DNA of 19,163 bases from Candidatus Bathyarchaeia archaeon (lineage in GTDB: Archaea > Thermoproteota > Bathyarchaeia > Bathyarchaeales > Bathycorpusculaceae). Shown one piece after another: positions 9,693 to 19,163 of the stretch. The DNA lies in the NCBI GenBank assembly GCA_050010515.1, contig JBEKKX010000041.1:1-19163 (forward strand), written 5' to 3'. The notes under the pieces are model-generated. The model ran no database searches. It worked only from the letters and a program-made list of their open reading frames with translations, and was not told the DNA's origin. Both the position numbers and the translations under genes were made by a program. Numbering within the stretch: position 1 is the first letter of the stretch; each line of letters begins with the position of its first letter.

Positions 9693-9766
9693 GCCTCGAT
9701 AGCTCAGCCCAGTAGAGCGGCTGCCTTGTAAGCAGCAGGCCGCGGGAGCAAGGCCCGCCCGAGGCT
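9693..9766 (+). tRNA. tRNA-Thr(TGT) with non-canonical D and T loops
   Basis: Cloverleaf: acceptor GCCTCGA/CCGAGGC (A7-C66 mismatch), D stem GCTC/GAGC, anticodon stem GCTGC/GCAGC with loop CTTGTAA (TGT at 9727-9729), T stem GCGGG/CCCGC, discriminator T, no encoded CCA. Confidence 0.88.
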
Positions 9767-9776
9767 CCTCTAAATT

Positions 9777-14304: not shown

Positions 14305-14424
14305 GCCGGGGTATCCGAGCCAGGTCTAAATAGGCGGCCAGATTAAGATTGCCTAAGATATGGAGGAGGACTTAAGATCCTCTGGCGCAGGCCTTCGTGG
14401 GTTCAAGTCCCACCCCCGGCACCA
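14305..14424 (+). tRNA. tRNA-Leu(TAA) with a 32-nt intron at non-canonical position 22/23 (intron 14330-14361) and encoded CCA
   Basis: Exon 1 GCCGGGGTATCCGAGCCAGGTCTAA plus exon 2 GGAGGAGGACTTAAGATCCTCTGGCGCAGGCCTTCGTGGGTTCAAGTCCCACCCCCGGCACCA give a type II cloverleaf. The central helix GTCT/AGAT has bulges AAA and ATG; the intron stem is TAGGCGG/TTGCCTA. Confidence 0.93.
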
Positions 14425-14480
14425 CTAAAAATAGTCTATAAAATTCAACTCTAACCTTTTCGGGTAAAAAAAGAGCCTTG

Positions 14481-14942
14481 TTACGTTTCTTGGCAAAACT
14501 CTTTGGGAGTCATTACTTTGCCTTTGAGGTTAGGTAGCCTCTCAAAATGTTCTTTGTTTTCGGTCAGCAGTACATCGCAACACTGCAAAAGAAAAGAGGC
14601 GGCGATTGCTACATCTTGGTATTCTATCGGTTGCCCCTTCGAGATTAGATATGCATTTAGTTCAGCAACAAGCTTAGCAGCCTCACCGTTTAATGAAACC
14701 CAGCGGAATTGACCAAGCACCTTTTCTGCTTTCTTTAAGGCAGTTTTGTAATCTTTTCTTAAATATGATCCTGTCAATATTTCCGAAACGCTTACCGTGC
14801 TGATAAATGCACTATTGGTGCTGGTTAATCGTTTGCACAGTTCTATTACGTCTTCTTTTCCTCTATCCACGTCGACAATTATTGAGGTATCAACGAATAC
14901 AGTTTTGAGTTCGCTTGTAGGTTTCTTCTTTTTCTCAGGCAA
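14481..14942 (-). CDS. vapC: PIN-domain VapC toxin
   Basis: VFVDTSII, STVSVSEI, YQDVAIAAS and LTENKEHF; probable TTG start just after the antitoxin stop. Confidence 0.92.
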   Translation of the reverse strand: MPEKKKKPTSELKTVFVDTSIIVDVDRGKEDVIELCKRLTSTNSAFISTVSVSEILTGSYLRKDYKTALKKAEKVLGQFRWVSLNGEAAKLVAELNAYLISKGQPIEYQDVAIAASFLLQCCDVLLTENKEHFERLPNLKGKVMTPKEFCQET

Positions 14943-14943
14943 T

Positions 14944-15195
14944 TCAAGGAACCAGCCCAAGGCGTTTGAATCTGTTTCTTGAATCGGCGCGTAAAGTTGT
15001 TAGCAGCTTTTCGAAGTCCACGGGTAAAAAGTCAGTGCAATCTTTCCACGCTTCTTCGTTTGCTTTTTCAATCACTATCTTGTTGCCTTCCACTACTCTC
15101 ATCTTCAGTCTATCTCCTTCCGTTATACCCACTTCTTCACGTATTTCTTTGGGTATTGTGACTTGTGAATGCCTTGTAACCGTGACTGAAGCCAT
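14944..15195 (-). CDS. vapB: AbrB-family antitoxin
   Basis: VTRHSQVTIPKEIREEVGITEGD. Confidence 0.92.
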   Translation of the reverse strand: MASVTVTRHSQVTIPKEIREEVGITEGDRLKMRVVEGNKIVIEKANEEAWKDCTDFLPVDFEKLLTTLRADSRNRFKRLGLVP

Positions 15196-15469
15196 CTGTC
15201 TCACTCTTAATATTTATTAGCAATTCCCACTAATAAGGAATTACTACAATTATGTAGGAAACTTGCAATAAGGAGTAATGCTGCAAAGCCGCACTCCCAA
15301 CTTTTGGGTGAAGGGGGCGAATAGAGAATAGCCGTGGAGCTAGCGCTCCCCACCAATTTCGGCGCAGTAGATATAGGTAGAAACTTAAATGTTGCTAATT
15401 TTGATTCTGTTACTTCTTAGTCAGGTTCCATCTCCATGTTACTTTTCGTCTGTTAGGGGAACTGAATAG

Positions 15470-16132
15470 TTGAGTGCGGTACCTCTTTTTGCAACAGGGC
15501 TTATATCGCTATTAGCTCTAATCTTGGTTAGACGTAGAATAAAAAGAGACGTTCCAATGGATAAAGAAGAGAGAGCACTATTATGGGTAATGGCGATTGC
15601 TGGAGGCGTTAGTGCTATCTTTGCAGTTCTCCTATGGTTAGGCATAAACCCATCGCTTTTCATGCATTACAAAACAGTTATTGAAATCATTTTGATTATG
15701 GGTTTCTTAATCTTTTTAGTTGCAATCATCTCCTATTTACTCTATCGAAAATGGAAATGGATTATTCTTCACTTCAAAAAGCCCATTGTGACCAGAATAA
15801 ACAATCGCTATAGGGAGAACTTGAAAAAAGAAATAAGACCAGAACTTGAAACTGAAGTAAAGACAAAGAAAATTGTACTTACCGACCAAGAAAAAGACGA
15901 AGTATTAACGATACTAACAAACATAGTTTGTTCCGACATCATGGATGGTCAAAAACTGCCACCCTATGAAGCACACAAAGTTTCAAACCCAACAAATTCC
16001 ATGAAGATAGATGGGATTATCTTCACAGTCTCACAGGACGATGCGGAAATCTTAGTAAAGAAAATGACCGAGCTACTCAACAATCCGAAATATAGAAAAA
16101 GACTATACCACTATTTCGGTCTATCCAATTGA
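15470..16132 (+). CDS. Hypothetical membrane protein (about 3 N-terminal TM helices and a soluble C-terminal domain)
   Basis: Three hydrophobic stretches in the first 100 or so aa of a 220-aa ORF. Confidence 0.7.
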   Translation: MSAVPLFATGLISLLALILVRRRIKRDVPMDKEERALLWVMAIAGGVSAIFAVLLWLGINPSLFMHYKTVIEIILIMGFLIFLVAIISYLLYRKWKWIILHFKKPIVTRINNRYRENLKKEIRPELETEVKTKKIVLTDQEKDEVLTILTNIVCSDIMDGQKLPPYEAHKVSNPTNSMKIDGIIFTVSQDDAEILVKKMTELLNNPKYRKRLYHYFGLSN

Positions 16133-16295
16133 GCATTTTGCAAAGTTTTCCAATTGTTGTCGCCCTCAACCGTTATCCCGCAAGCCTCAGAAGAGGTTTT
16201 GCCGTCTAAGGCTTCATGCGGACGGACAAAGTTGTGGTAAAGCTGGTAGCGTTGCAGAATAACGGCTGAATCCTCTTTCTTTAAACCCTCTTTGT
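16130..16295 (-). mobile_element. C-terminal remnant of a DDE transposase (IS6/integrase-core-like)
   Basis: GLKKEDSAVILQRYQLYHNFVRPHEALDGKTSSEACGI, the YN..RPH.AL.GKTP motif; no N-terminal part. Confidence 0.75.
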
Positions 16296-16392
16296 CTCTA
16301 TATAGTCTTAGCAAGAGCAAAACGCTTTTCACATAAAGGTTACAAGTTGAGCATTCTTAGATTTTCCCAGTAAGGTGAGCTAGGAGCTATTT

Positions 16393-16887
16393 TCAAAATT
16401 GTTCTATTGAAACCATAAAGTGGTCAGGGTATGGAGTCCCTTCGTAATCATGCTTTGTTTTCCATTCAACATTTCTTAGATGGTCGAAAAATCCACTCCC
16501 TCTTTTTCCAGTGAGTTTTCTATCATAATGATATTCTTGTTCAGTTAAAACAGCCAGACCGAGAAAGTAAAAAATACCATTCACGATAACTACATCATCG
16601 TCAGCTATCATTTCATTGCAAAAAAGATTGAACTGACTAGGCCAAGGTATTGAAACCGCCTGCTTTTCTGTGTCAGTAAGGTTATTCCAGTCTGTTTTAA
16701 CTTCGTCTGGCCAATCCAGGCCTATAAGGTTCCTTCCTGTGGGGTTCTTTCCTAAGGCAAAATTCCAAAGTCTTTCTCTCTCTTCGAGATTTACCCTGCG
16801 ATTTTTGTCCCCATAGCTTAAGTGCATAAGATAGAAATCGTCTTTCTTTTTCGAGTCCAGCCACTCGCCAAGATTCATGGTACCCAC
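16393..16887 (-). CDS. Hypothetical protein resembling PUA/EVE-like N-terminal domains of McrB/Mrr-type proteins; probably frameshifted near its 3' end
   Basis: LIGLDW, QFNLFCNEMIADDDVVIV, LGLAVL, YHYD and HLRNVEW pattern. Confidence 0.55.
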   Translation of the reverse strand: MGTMNLGEWLDSKKKDDFYLMHLSYGDKNRRVNLEERERLWNFALGKNPTGRNLIGLDWPDEVKTDWNNLTDTEKQAVSIPWPSQFNLFCNEMIADDDVVIVNGIFYFLGLAVLTEQEYHYDRKLTGKRGSGFFDHLRNVEWKTKHDYEGTPYPDHFMVSIEQF

Positions 16888-17019
16888 TCGATTGAACTGT
16901 ATAGCGCTTGGAATTTAAAAATATTCGCACCGAGTTATCCCACGTTGTTAACAGCCGCAAAGAAACCCGTCAGCTTATCCCACGGGAGTTAACATGAAAC
17001 CCCAAATCTCCACAACAAG

Positions 17020-17464
17020 TTACCAGACCCTAATTTTGGTTTCTTTCTGTATTACCCCAAACTTCAACTGAAAAACTAGTTAATCCCCAATGCCACCCCC
17101 TCTTTTCAGCAACATGCTCTCCAAACTCAGTTTCCAAGCGCTTGTTCATTTTTAGAATTCTTCGGCTTATTTGGTGCCGGGTGACATTGAAACGCTCAAG
17201 CTTAACTGCATATCCTTGGGTAATAAGCCGGAACTGCCTGCCTCAAAAAGCAACTGCAGAATTTCCTTGTCAACCTCGTCTTGGCAGGCAACTCGCCGAT
17301 TAATGACTGCTCAAAATTGAAAGAACCCTTCATACCAGCAAAGATAGTTCGAAGCATAAGTTTGACTTCTTCAACTTCTGTCAAGGTCTTCTTGAGCAGT
17401 TGTTGATTATAATTTAAACGACCAATCTTATCGCTTCGCCGTGCTTCTTTGACGCTTTCATCAG
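17020..17464 (-). pseudogene. 5'-truncated, doubly frameshifted winged-helix protein gene
   Basis: Three frames join to give ...KIGRLNYNQQLLKKTLTEVEEVKLMLRTIFAGMKGSFNFEQSLI / RVACQDEVDKEILQLLFEAGSSGLLPKD / AVKLERFNVTRHQISRRILKMNKRLETEFGEHVAEKRGWHWGLT..., with shifts near 17297 and 17210. Confidence 0.7.
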
Positions 17465-17533
17465 TATGGAGGAGGACTTAAGATCCTCTGGCGCAGGCAT
17501 TCGTGGGTTCAAGTCCCACCCCCGGCACCACTA
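17465..17533 (+). repeat. att-like copy 2 of the tRNA-Leu 3' part (last 3 intron nt, exon 2, CCA, CTA)
   Basis: 68/69 identical to 14359-14427. Confidence 0.97.
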
Positions 17534-17564
17534 CGTTGAAAATATCGATTTGTGGGCGGTAATT

Positions 17565-17846
17565 TCAAACTTCTGGGAAAAATCGTCTCATGAATGCAAT
17601 TATTGCTTGATTTTCTCTGGGGTTGAGTGCTACCTGCAATCCATAACTTGTTGGTTTGGGGATAATCCACCCTTGACGGATAAGGTCTTTTGCGATTGTG
17701 TCTATTCTTTTTGTCCCATGTTTTCCGAGATCCGCTTCTTTAAAGCCCTTTTGCAGATTCTCGAAGGCTGTGTGACTTGCTCCCCAATTGCCTCTCTTAT
17801 GAAGCTTGAAAAGTATCGTCGCTTTTATTTCGTCGTCCGAAAGCAT
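17565..17846 (-). CDS. Small basic hypothetical protein, possibly winged-helix-like
   Basis: 93-aa ORF with ILFKLHKRGNWGASHT and DLIRQGWIIPKPTSYG; divergent from the HTH gene. Confidence 0.75.
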   Translation of the reverse strand: MLSDDEIKATILFKLHKRGNWGASHTAFENLQKGFKEADLGKHGTKRIDTIAKDLIRQGWIIPKPTSYGLQVALNPRENQAIIAFMRRFFPEV

Positions 17847-17921
17847 AAGTTCACTTTTGATACTTTCAAAGGTTACTCTTATATACTTTGGGATTATTTA
17901 TGATTCAGCAGGTCTTTTGAT

Positions 17922-18281
17922 ATGGGAACGGCATACAAAGCGGATGAAACACTTCTGCTCAAATACTTGGGAGATAGCCCAATACTGAGAATCATTGATT
18001 TCTTCTTAGACAACCCGCTTTCTGATTACTCCAAAAACGAGGTTGCAAAGAATCTTGCTATGAGCAGAGCAACATTTTTCAAGTATTGGAAAGAACTTGA
18101 AATGTCGGGAGCTCTGATAGTAACCCGTAAAATTGGGAGAGCTACGATGTACAAGCTTGACAGAGCTAACGATATTGTAAAACAATTGATTAGGCTTGAT
18201 ATGACTATTTCAAGAAAGGCAATGGAAAAACAAGTTGAAGAAAACGAGAAGTCGATTGCTATTAAAACAGGCTCTCACTAG
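17922..18281 (+). CDS. Winged-helix (ArsR-like) HTH protein
   Basis: SPILRIIDFF, YSKNEVAKNLAMSRATFFKYWKEL and TRKIGRATMYKL. Confidence 0.85.
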   Translation: MGTAYKADETLLLKYLGDSPILRIIDFFLDNPLSDYSKNEVAKNLAMSRATFFKYWKELEMSGALIVTRKIGRATMYKLDRANDIVKQLIRLDMTISRKAMEKQVEENEKSIAIKTGSH

Positions 18282-18318
18282 ATATTTGTTTGGTTCTGTA
18301 TCAAGCCTCCCTTTGCAA

Positions 18319-18332
18319 CCCCGGCACCACTA
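18319..18332 (+). repeat. Short att-like copy 3 of the tRNA-Leu 3' end
   Basis: CCCCGGCACCACTA, identical to 14414-14427 and 17520-17533; lies between genes. Confidence 0.8.
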
Positions 18333-18363
18333 TTGTTAAAATCGAGGGAAAGCTGAGGGTTTT

Positions 18364-18762
18364 TTAGATCCAGCTTTTTTTTGTTTCCTGTATTGCGTCA
18401 AAGTGGGGGTCGTCTGACAGAATGGTTGCTTGGTTGGCTATGGCTGTTGCAGCAATTATGCAGTCGCCCATAGGTGTATTTCGGTATTTGCTTCTGAGCA
18501 GGCCTGCTTGTTTGGCTATTGGTGAAGTTAGGCTTTGGATCTTCAGTCCGCTTTGGGTTAAATTCGCATAGCAGATTTCTGCTTCTTCTTTTCCGATTTT
18601 TTCGCAAATCGTTTGAATAGTTTCGCTGATAACGATTGTCGGCAGTATGCCTTCTTTGCGCTGGATAAGGTCTTTTAACTTTTTTGTAGCTTTTTGCTTG
18701 GTTTCAGTTTTGTCTGAATAGAAATATTCCATGATGAATCGGCTGTCAAGCACCATTTTCAA
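18364..18762 (-). CDS. vapC: PIN-domain VapC toxin
   Basis: MVLDS, PTIVISE, MGDCIIAATA and LSDDPHF. Confidence 0.92.
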   Translation of the reverse strand: MKMVLDSRFIMEYFYSDKTETKQKATKKLKDLIQRKEGILPTIVISETIQTICEKIGKEEAEICYANLTQSGLKIQSLTSPIAKQAGLLRSKYRNTPMGDCIIAATAIANQATILSDDPHFDAIQETKKSWI

Positions 18763-18765
18763 GCT

Positions 18766-19008
18766 TTAATATTCCTCTCTAAGCATGTCTATGTGTTTCT
18801 TCATTTCTTCCGGCTTTGCGTATTTTGAGTAGATGCCTGCGCATTCTTCTAGTTTTCTGATTGGTGTAAAAATAACTTGACCGTGCTCGGTTGCTTCGAC
18901 TAAAAGTTTGTCTCCTTCCTTTATCACCAGTTTTTGCCTAACTTCTACTGGTATAGTTGTTTGACCTTTTCGGGTAACCTTTACAATGCTGGTCATGTGT
19001 AATCTCAA
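18766..19008 (-). CDS. vapB: AbrB-family antitoxin
   Basis: VKVTRKGQTTIPVEVRQKLVIKEGD; start at 18996 or 19008. Confidence 0.92.
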   Translation of the reverse strand: MRLHMTSIVKVTRKGQTTIPVEVRQKLVIKEGDKLLVEATEHGQVIFTPIRKLEECAGIYSKYAKPEEMKKHIDMLREEY

Positions 19009-19103
19009 TACGTAAAGGTCAGTACTACCCTAAAAGTTTTATCCTAATTCAATTGCGAAAATACTACTTAACTTAAAGTCAGTGATGCCATAAAATGGAA
19101 TTT

Positions 19104-19163
19104 GATTGCCTAAGATATGGAGGAGGACTTAAGATCCTCTGGCGCAGGCCTTCGTGGGTTCAA
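19104..19163 (+). repeat. att-like copy 4 of the tRNA-Leu 3' part (last 15 intron nt plus exon 2), cut by the window end
   Basis: 60/60 identical to 14347-14406. Confidence 0.97.

Follow-up and report, generated by a model that had tools for sequence, protein, structure and literature searches.

Chromosomal integrons collect small cassettes of unrelated function, many of them toxin–antitoxin pairs thought to stabilise the array, and they vary in cassette content and order. A partly similar array follows a tRNA-Leu(UAA) gene near the end of the 19,163-nucleotide (nt) stretch of DNA analysed here (the window), which is the complete contig C41 (JBEKKX010000041.1) of a Candidatus Bathyarchaeia archaeon (GCA_050010515.1), a 2.38-Mb archaeal genome in 66 contigs. 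Direct partial copies of this tRNA gene, which are candidate attachment (att) sites, separate four small modules, called cassettes 1–4. There is, in our estimate, about an even chance that the structure is an accretion array, in which att-bounded modules without integrases are moved by the integrases of other elements and toxin–antitoxin pairs favour their retention. The genome of the window is termed G000; other G numbers denote relatives, C numbers contigs, L numbers extracted loci and X numbers public metagenome runs.

With chromosomal integrons the array shares small cassettes of one to a few genes, toxin–antitoxin cargo and varying content and order. Unlike them, it has no IntI gene and no attI site, direct copies of a tRNA 3′ end take the place of attC hairpins, its genes point in both directions and its cassettes have their own upstream regions. 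A preliminary description of the window, made from the sequence, had offered an integron-like system as one of two readings; with no resident integrase, no attC-type site and mixed gene orientation, none of the features that define an integron was found.

Accretion at att sites and cis-mobilizable elements (CIMEs) have been described in the islands of Streptococcus related to ICESt1 and ICESt3 (PMC5704250). As the consulted part of that account presents them, CIMEs resemble the present array in being flanked by attL and attR, which copy the target gene's 3′ end, in lacking integration and transfer genes, in lying in tandem and in being mobilisable by the integrase of a neighbour. Unlike CIMEs, the present units occur in an archaeal host, at an intron-bearing tRNA gene whose intron takes part in the repeat, and many of them are single-operon units of 0.55–1 kb; rows of up to five or more occur. 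The same units are found in many species in other combinations, descent from a larger element is supported for cassette 4 only, and mobilisation is here something that we infer. The tycheposon islands of Prochlorococcus consist of tandem elements separated by partial tRNAs (bioRxiv 10.1101/2020.12.28.424599). In the portion of that preprint used here, tyrosine integrases insert elements at tRNA genes and successive insertions are parted by a partial tRNA copy only, as in the array; newer elements push older ones inwards, and degenerate remnants and partial tRNAs are scattered in the islands. The remnants of tycheposons are presented there as having no clear boundaries, whereas the units described here are clean-edged on both sides and shared between species as units, and their insertions, unlike those of tycheposons, seem to occur both beside the tRNA and at the distal end.

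Among archaea, the cryptic integrated elements of Thaumarchaeota are defined by their integrase, the smallest measuring 2.6 kb with the integrase included (PMC6563490), and tandem integration and loss of the integrase gene are already in print (PMC8371274). To the extent that the consulted parts of these two sources cover them, archaeal tRNA elements share with the array the use of the tRNA 3′ part, including that of intron-bearing genes, the tandem use of the site, and VapBC and winged-helix cargo. The units described here differ from the catalogued ones in having no integrase and in being as small as ~0.55 kb. No description of such arrays in Bathyarchaeia was found in the literature searched, most subscription journals lying outside it.

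The anchor gene and its partial copies are as follows.

14305–14424, + strand: tRNA-Leu(UAA) gene with a predicted intron of ~32 nt within ~14330–14369; anchor (putative attB) of the array.
17465–17533, + strand: att copy 2; tRNA positions 55–123 (the final 5 nt of the intron zone, the rest of the gene up to its 3′ end, and CTA), 68 of 69 positions identical to 14359–14427.
18316–18332, + strand: att copy 3; 17-nt remnant of the tRNA 3′ end, 16 of 17 identical, with an exact 14-of-14 match at 18319–18332.
19104–19163, + strand: att copy 4; begins at tRNA position 43, in the intron, 60 of 60 identical to 14347–14406, and is cut by the contig end.
C23:2043–2069: att copy 5; exact 27-nt copy of the tRNA 3′ end.

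All copies are direct, and the repeats that bound the units measure 17–81 nt. The three repeats within the window had been reported in the preliminary description, and their positions and identities were reproduced. They occur far beyond chance: the 14-mer of the 3′ end is present three times in the window, against 0.00 expected from 200 shuffles. Two of the copies, copy 2 and copy 4, extend into the intron. At the place of copy 3, to the left of cassette 3, longer copies of 25–36 nt are found in G094, G082, G011 and G097. When a 60-nt query specific to this tRNA was used, at least two copies were present in 29 of the 105 genomes having a match, a count that includes copies located on other contigs and, possibly, a few bins made up of two strains. 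A general trailer motif behind the copies (an A-run, a G-run and a TGGCG-like word) was considered and dropped, as a scripted motif test recovered it at only 7 of 52 junctions.

The region 14305–14427 is called a tRNA neither by ARAGORN, with or without its intron option, nor by Rfam, because an insert of ~32 nt stands at a non-canonical place. After excision in a script of 30–35 nt within ~14330–14369, ARAGORN calls a tRNA-Leu(taa) from the true 5′ end, and excision of 32 nt leaves 88 nt, the length of the other tRNA-Leu genes of G000. The fold of the gene shows acceptor, anticodon (UAA), variable and T arms, with the insert between the D-arm region and the anticodon stem. The full-length gene of 120 nt is present in 18 of 24 congeners drawn, and is ~73–86% identical in other families of the order; between genomes the exons are conserved and the 5′ half of the insert is variable. 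A cloverleaf with the right anticodon after one excision, and exons more conserved than the intron, are as expected of an intron-bearing archaeal tRNA gene, and the insert is taken as a putative non-canonical intron on these grounds. The bases to the left of copy 4 (19092–19120) resemble the intron variant of G013, G004 and G016 and not G000's own (compared with L019, L022 and L024); partial copies thus appear to carry foreign intron variants. The ARAGORN list for G000 holds 45 tRNAs, with no Leu(taa) and no Leu(caa). In G015 (L020, oriented 2780–2973), the tRNA runs to position 92 and is followed by 23 nt and a restart in the intron that continues to the 3′ end. This amounts to a 68-nt duplication within the gene, beside an integrase, and may be due to the assembly or represent a functional gene whose intron is longer.

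The copies delimit the following units, which succeed one another in the order tRNA, cassette 1, copy 2, cassette 2, copy 3, cassette 3, copy 4, cassette 4, copy 5 and conserved flank.

14428–17464: cassette 1 (3037 nt), composite; VapBC core at ~14428–15321 (~0.9 kb) plus ~2.1 kb of other DNA.
14481–14960, − strand: predicted VapC-like PIN toxin gene of cassette 1, 159 amino acids (aa); Pfam PIN, E value 6e-08.
14944–15204, − strand: predicted VapB-like AbrB/MazE-fold antitoxin gene of cassette 1, 86 aa; Pfam MazE_antitoxin, E value 1e-13.
17534–18315: cassette 2 (782 nt); divergent pair encoding a 93-aa protein (17565–17846, − strand) and a 119-aa winged-helix protein (17922–18281, + strand).
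18333–19103: cassette 3 (771 nt); predicted VapBC with PIN toxin (18364–18762, − strand; Pfam PIN, E value 4.7e-14) and AbrB/MazE antitoxin (18766–19008, − strand; Pfam MazE, E value 7.7e-10).
Contig C23, ahead of copy 5, + strand: cassette 4 (~2.04 kb), with an MFS transporter gene; outside the window.

Gene orientation in the four cassettes is thus −, −/+, − and +. The pairs at 14481–15204 and 18364–19008, recognised as VapBC at first reading, are type II toxin–antitoxin pairs of that family by their domain content, both above the Pfam cut-offs. The earlier delimitation of the cassettes by the tRNA copies stands for cassettes 2 and 3; cassette 1 is composite and is not one clean unit. Units of this locus are bounded on both sides by att copies of the target gene, as in an accretion array.

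No recombinase was found in the array. A six-frame search of G000 gave five matches to PF00589, on C22, C9, C21, C1 and C2, and none on C41 or C23; PF00239 had no match anywhere in G000. Pfam scans of the open reading frames (ORFs) of cassettes 1–3 and of three ORFs at the start of C23, including cassette 4, detected no integration or transfer genes. The absence of an integrase from the array, and the view that units with no recombinase inside are too small for autonomy, are therefore upheld. An integrative element with its own tyrosine integrase (class I, of the SSV type, or class II), whole or split into N and C parts, was considered and rejected: the six frames of 16880–17540, around copy 2, contain no recognisable integrase fragment, and PF00589 is absent from the window.

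The array evidently continues from the end of C41 on contig C23, up to the conserved flank. In a contig of run X4 the tRNA 3′ end is followed immediately by the bases with which C23 begins, leaving a gap of 16 nt between C41 and C23. Moreover, C23:1–105 shares 81–84% identity with the DNA that immediately follows tRNA-Leu in G016 and G097, and C23:24–110 shares 78% with that in G013. From position 2070 on, C23 (a 470-aa membrane protein and further genes) matches genes located further downstream of tRNA-Leu in G003, G004, G002 and G013; G004 is the only one of these in which the last copy borders immediately on the flank genes. The left end of cassette 4 contains a run of 10 G (C23:17–28; L014) that counts 12 G in the X4 contig, a homopolymer of variable length.

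Since the contig C41 ends inside a repeat, chimeric joining caused by the repeats in a metagenome-assembled genome has to be weighed. Logan assembled contigs of public runs were aligned to the locus; the runs containing the stretch are peat and wetland metagenomes (20 runs from 16 studies). None of the Logan contigs aligned crosses the 69-nt copy 2, so the join between cassettes 1 and 2 depends on the original assembly and on G130, in which the order is the same. On the other hand, copy 3 is crossed by contigs of X4, X11 and X17, at least half of the sampled words are present in 19 runs from 15 studies, and the repeats, at 17–81 nt, are assumed to be shorter than usual read lengths. In addition, the succession of cassette 2, cassette 3 and att recurs in the assemblies of G004 and G130, with 94% identity over ~1.55 kb. 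We regard an assembly artefact as extremely improbable. The uncovered parts of X13 and X17, and a join of 17533 to 19117 in X4 (side 26, below the caution line of the tool), were not used as evidence.

Comparison across 120 genomes of the genus indicates that cassettes 2 and 3 are modular. Their matches are split, with alignments ending at att copies, and the two cassettes occur apart. Cassette 3 is found in 10 other genomes, with 88–95% nucleotide identity and with the tRNA or an att copy on at least one side. It is preceded by cassette 2 in G004, G130 and G128, by the tRNA itself in G087 and by unrelated cassettes in G094, G082 and G098; in G097, G111 and G011 it occupies places with partial copies and no tRNA gene. 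Cassette 2 is present alone, with its ends at att copies, in G092, G001, G066, G111 and G108 (80–84%). The VapBC core of cassette 1 (~14487–15321 in this comparison) recurs in G001, G023, G066 and G120, and in G130 it forms on its own a 921-nt unit from att to att, with 89% identity. The order differs as well: in G066 the tRNA is followed by cassette 2, an att copy, a 1.9-kb stretch with the cassette-1 core at its end, a further att copy and the flank, as opposed to the order cassette-1 core, cassette 2, cassette 3 of G000 and G130.

Turnover of the cassettes is fast: the closest relative, G078, has an identical tRNA (contig C16), 92% identity over Cbf5–L14e and a flank of 94% identity, but other cassettes: between copies of 28–30 nt it holds a radical-SAM gene and an NYN-domain gene, and none of the four units of G000. 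At least five intervals are present at the locus of G120. In total, 31 intervals bounded on both sides were delimited (17 loci in 16 genomes, mostly selected by cassettes 2 and 3; 554–8328 nt), of which 18 carry toxin–antitoxin-type genes and 2 an integrase. In an unbiased subset of seven intervals from six genomes, four have toxin–antitoxin genes and two an integrase, and further partial copies were present within 9 kb at 6 of 16 tRNA-Leu loci fetched regardless of content. Among the rest of the cargo are enzymes (a glyoxalase, a nitroreductase), transporters (MFS, ABC), an AsnC-like protein, a sensor kinase and a restriction–modification pair of the XamI type. A comparison of cassette number, content and order among relatives had been proposed at the outset; all three vary, which favours cassettes.

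In distant species, cassette 3 is also less diverged than the housekeeping genes Cbf5 and L14e. Nucleotide identity to G000 in cassette 3, compared with Cbf5–L14e, is 95 versus 77% in G082, 91 versus 79% in G098 and 90 versus 79% in G087. Synonymous divergence from G000, calculated by the method of Nei and Gojobori, was as follows.

G082: Cbf5 1.29 and L14e 0.93, versus VapC 0.29 and VapB 0.13 of cassette 3.
G098: Cbf5 1.65 and L14e 1.01, versus VapC 0.42 and VapB 0.26.
G087: Cbf5 2.13 and L14e 0.69, versus VapC 0.44 and VapB 0.23.
G128: Cbf5 1.90 and L14e 1.33, versus VapC 0.63 and VapB 0.26.
G111: Cbf5 1.20 and L14e 0.42, versus VapC 0.34 and VapB 0.15.
G097: Cbf5 1.02 and L14e 0.47, versus VapC 0.44 and VapB 0.41.

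In five distant species the synonymous divergence of cassette 3 is 3–9 times below that of Cbf5, and this pattern points to transfer of cassette 3 after the species had split, that is, to horizontal spread. In G082 all the genes compared are on one contig of 1.03 Mb, so binning is not the cause of the contrast.

Integrase-bearing elements occupy this same tRNA in seven relatives, and their integrases could act on the site. Two types were distinguished. Type A is a tyrosine recombinase of ~440 aa that combines a Zn ribbon with PF00589; it lies directly behind the tRNA in G016, orthologues with at least 80% identity stand beside the tRNA or Cbf5 in G097, G048 and G099, and G001 has a truncated one. 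Type B is a 306-aa integrase located behind the tRNA in G015, its open frame starting inside a tRNA copy; in G120 it is reduced to a 224-aa fragment beside the tRNA. The best type A match in G000, on C9, has an E value of 2.7e-50 and ~35% identity and is not a close orthologue. The type B integrase of G015 likewise finds its best match in G000 on C9, with 25% identity, no dedicated search of G000 for type B having been run. The type B frame begins in the T arm/acceptor part of the tRNA copy (L020:12138–13058 in G015; L071:11950–12624 in G120), and the N termini of the two proteins are alike. This position recalls integrases of the SSV type, in which the site lies within the gene; the far end yielded no N-terminal fragment.

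The ends of cassette 4 relate it to such elements. Its left end is that stretch of C23 with 81–84% identity to G016 and G097, where it forms the left end of type A elements, and its right end shares 89% identity with the right end of the G001 element. The right end also matches an integrase-less insert of G013 that holds a different gene. These matches point to the derivation of cassette 4 by deletion from an integrase-bearing element. In the preliminary description, cassettes that each match the end of a large ordinary element would have spoken against a cassette system; such a match was found for cassette 4, and for none of the three cassettes of the window.

The wide occurrence of type A bears on another explanation, according to which the cassettes are autonomous minicircles. 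Each would carry its own site (in cassette 3, 81 nt of the tRNA, beginning in the intron and including the 3′ end), and an integrase acting in trans would insert it into the tRNA or into any of the copies. In function, such an array would be an archaeal equivalent of an integron, and the tRNA 3′ part would stand in for both attC and attI. The wider type A family has a match in 100 of the 120 genomes. Two unrelated cassettes, cassette 3 and a cassette of G002 and G087 that encodes a PIN protein with a 66/69-aa partner, both end in a copy that starts from tRNA position 43. The small size of the units (0.55–3 kb), their one to three genes of unrelated function (toxin–antitoxin, glyoxalase, nitroreductase, restriction–modification, NYN nuclease, transporters) and the presence of the same unit behind different neighbours, and behind the tRNA itself, are also in line with this view. 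However, no circle junction was seen in the assembled contigs, most genomes have no integrase resident beside the array, and the ends of cassette 4 look like those of full-size elements. The left-hand copies of cassette 3 vary from 17 to 66 nt, with no evident uniform site on both sides, and genes run in both directions, toxin–antitoxin operons having their own upstream regions. We therefore consider it unlikely, though worth keeping in view, that the cassettes are minicircles of this kind, and hold the same opinion of their standing as an archaeal counterpart of the integron. An integron-like gene capture of archaea, in which the partial tRNA-Leu is a portable site on one-operon cassettes and abundant Zn-ribbon tyrosine integrases capture minicircles in trans, is likewise improbable in our judgement. 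If it were true, the cassettes for addiction, defence and metabolism would form in each species an array that is particular to it and keeps changing, and the traffic of cassettes could also spread tRNA introns, since the copies carry intron variants of other species.

A further alternative is that erosion accounts for the whole array: each unit would be what is left of a separate full-size element after decay to the genes that are addictive or useful, an ancestral array would have been inherited vertically and lost differentially through its repeats, and the small units would never move. In addition to the ends of cassette 4, which match integrase-bearing elements, the relics in cassette 1 and the truncated integrase beside the tRNA of G120 are as expected from decay, and archaeal integrated elements without an integrase have presumably lost it, according to the consulted part of a review (PMC8371274). 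Vertical descent would also suit the cassette-1 core, which diverges about as the core genome does, and cassette 3 in the close kin G004, G130 and G094, where its divergence is similar to that of Cbf5 and L14e. What argues against erosion is the reduced synonymous divergence of cassette 3 in five distant species, the different order in G066, the same unit boundaries behind unrelated neighbours, and G078, the closest relative, which has none of the four units despite flanks of 92–94% identity. Erosion alone thus appears decidedly unlikely. Mobilisation in trans and erosion down to an addictive core had been put forward in the preliminary description as alternatives; they are not exclusive, and the data fit att-bounded modules, eroded or minimal, that the integrases of others still move.

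The near-identity of the tRNA copies would, in principle, also permit exchange by homologous recombination. The copies would then be portable homology, and DNA taken up from relatives would swap, add or delete cassettes with no site-specific recombinase. Among the matches listed, the 60-nt segment is 100% identical at 38 places in 34 genomes, G000 included, and the arrays of G000 and its closest kin differ although G000 has no close type A orthologue. Exchange of modules between tandem archaeal elements through homologous recombination is proposed in the part of the review consulted (PMC8371274), and natural transformation drives cassette shuffling in chromosomal integrons, as reported in the part consulted of another paper (PMC12614218). 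Some junction copies, however, are of 14–30 nt, short for such recombination, and each cassette has copy boundaries of its own (position 43 in the case of cassette 3), which would be expected of a defined attachment site. Furthermore, integrases are found exactly at this tRNA in seven relatives. Homologous recombination as the sole process seems to us very unlikely.

Several observations weigh against the accretion array as we propose it. The evidence consists of assembled contigs, and recombination was not observed. The contrast in synonymous divergence involves two housekeeping genes only; it is weak for G097 (L14e 0.47 versus 0.44 and 0.41) and absent from the close kin G004, G130 and G094. 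The cassette-1 core is about as divergent as the core genome (for example G066, 74.5% versus 79%; G023, 76% versus 74%), which fits old vertical descent. Homologues of cassette 3 with 79–87% identity in G114, G091, G103 (two), G122, G125 and G086 have no convincing att copy within ~5 kb, the best att matches near them being at most 17 nt long with E values of 0.35 or worse. No integrase-bearing parent element was found for cassettes 1–3, and the large type A elements have no right-hand tRNA copy within 22 kb (G016) and 17 kb (G099). Viral contigs, scanned for exact matches to 34 nt of the att site, gave 0 matches and thus point to no vehicle. Loci L033–L056 were picked by similarity to cassettes 2 and 3, so that counts from them are biased to these cassettes. 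Finally, alternative joins in run X13, a contig of depth 181 in which the tRNA end is joined to 17907 and one of depth 2.2 in which an att copy is joined to the start of cassette 3 without cassette 2, count in favour of the array, but may stem from other species in the same samples.

If the accretion reading is nevertheless correct, the intron-bearing tRNA-Leu(UAA) would be the chromosomal attachment site of tyrosine-integrase elements in the genus. Four modules would have accumulated behind the tRNA of G000, each closed by a partial direct copy and with the conserved flank last, and they would be either minimal or cut down from larger elements. Full-size elements that use this tRNA in relatives would supply the integrases that insert and excise these modules, and probably also the vehicles that carry them to other cells as passengers. 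Repeated integration into the tRNA or into a distal copy would make the array grow, recombination between copies would delete whole units, and the VapBC addiction modules would stabilise the array by favouring retention. The array of G000 is probably static until an integrase-bearing element arrives, because G000 contains no close type A orthologue (one family was searched) and the array contigs contain no recombinase.

Bathyarchaeia are abundant and uncultured, and their means of gene exchange are hardly known. The locus appears as a hot spot where single-operon units without a recombinase of their own are gained, lost and shared between species, the cargo including toxin–antitoxin pairs, a restriction–modification system, nucleases, transporters and small enzymes. 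Should integrases of larger elements indeed move these units, accretion and cis-mobilisation, known to date from bacteria, would extend to archaea. The presence of the intron inside the attachment repeat also bears on the idea that elements spread tRNA introns; that integrating elements carry introns between tRNA genes is an old proposal (Sugahara 2012, as cited in the consulted part of PMC8371274). With one tRNA site, defined partial copies and two types of integrase, the system would, if the units are so moved, be simple and testable.

Outside its VapBC core, cassette 1 contains the following features.

15470–16132, + strand: 220-aa ORF in the variable part; hydrophobic N-terminal half, a membrane protein by eye.
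16111–16332, − strand: probable relic of the C-terminal part of a DDE (rve-like) transposase; 73-aa ORF, no Pfam match.
16393–16887, − strand: 164-aa ORF; no Pfam or NCBIfam match.

The 220-aa ORF has sub-threshold family matches only in Pfam and NCBIfam. It is missing from a close variant of cassette 1 in run X17 (depth 40), in which 15376–17269 (1894 nt) is replaced by 181 other letters, an insertion–deletion that is not at an att copy. Within the transposase relic, 16145–16260 is 72–77% identical to three other places in G000, one of which, C4:32341–32455, immediately follows an rve match below threshold within a frame of 249 aa.

The 119-aa gene of cassette 2 has weak helix-turn-helix matches only, and its Atlas neighbours are ArsR/MarR-like proteins, to be read as leads only. 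An AlphaFold2 model of the 93-aa protein, built from 7 sequences, is all-helical with a mean predicted local distance difference test score of 56.8, too poor for a fold search, and the Atlas look-alikes of this protein are unnamed archaeal clusters. Without its partner, the winged-helix gene adjoins an MNT-like nucleotidyltransferase gene in G078 and G087 (L055:5540–5902 and L054:5749–6378), and the 209-aa nucleotidyltransferase of G087 has a weak winged-helix-like N-terminal part (DUF7342) of its own; this hints at a toxin–antitoxin-like or regulatory module to which the cassette-2 pair would belong. A + strand ORF at 17466–17903, running through copy 2, was taken as spurious: it overlaps the conserved 93-aa gene on the other strand and belongs to no family. 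As for cassette 3, a paralogue of its VapBC pair is present in G000 at C19:42128–42747 (L016), near a contig end, with 71–72% nucleotide identity.

Some genomes contain elsewhere a second, slightly diverged tRNA-Leu(UAA)-like copy with cassettes of its own (L070:5275–8304, on C3 of G098; L055, on C3 of G078). Such a locus could be a second site, a copy borne by an element or a second strain in the bin; it is between copies at L070 that the XamI-type restriction–modification pair of G098 is located. In G097 (L039 6815–8215), cassette 3 stands between SecY/ribosomal genes on one side and a terminase large subunit and a PLD-like nuclease on the other, and in G082 (L034 2656–3153) a tail tube gene of the T4 gp19 type lies ~1 kb behind the array. 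Proviruses or tail-like particles near these two arrays are possible, as candidate vehicles.

A fast-evolving protein of 285–296 aa is encoded just behind the last att copy in many relatives (for instance L034:3305–4177, L040:3258–4136 and L050:4302–5159); in G000 a protein of this type is encoded on C10 (L057:2189–3052), beside a tRNA-Pro. It was considered as a hidden recombinase and set aside as a gene of the flank, having no Pfam or NCBIfam match and, by eye, a basic N terminus followed by a charged, repetitive, coiled-coil-like remainder. Elsewhere in the window, a tRNA-Thr(tgt) is located at 9693–9768, and positions 1–355 are the 3′ end of an archaeal large-subunit rRNA (Rfam). Both ends of C41 therefore fall in repeated or conserved RNA genes, the large-subunit rRNA at its start and the tRNA-Leu copy at its end.

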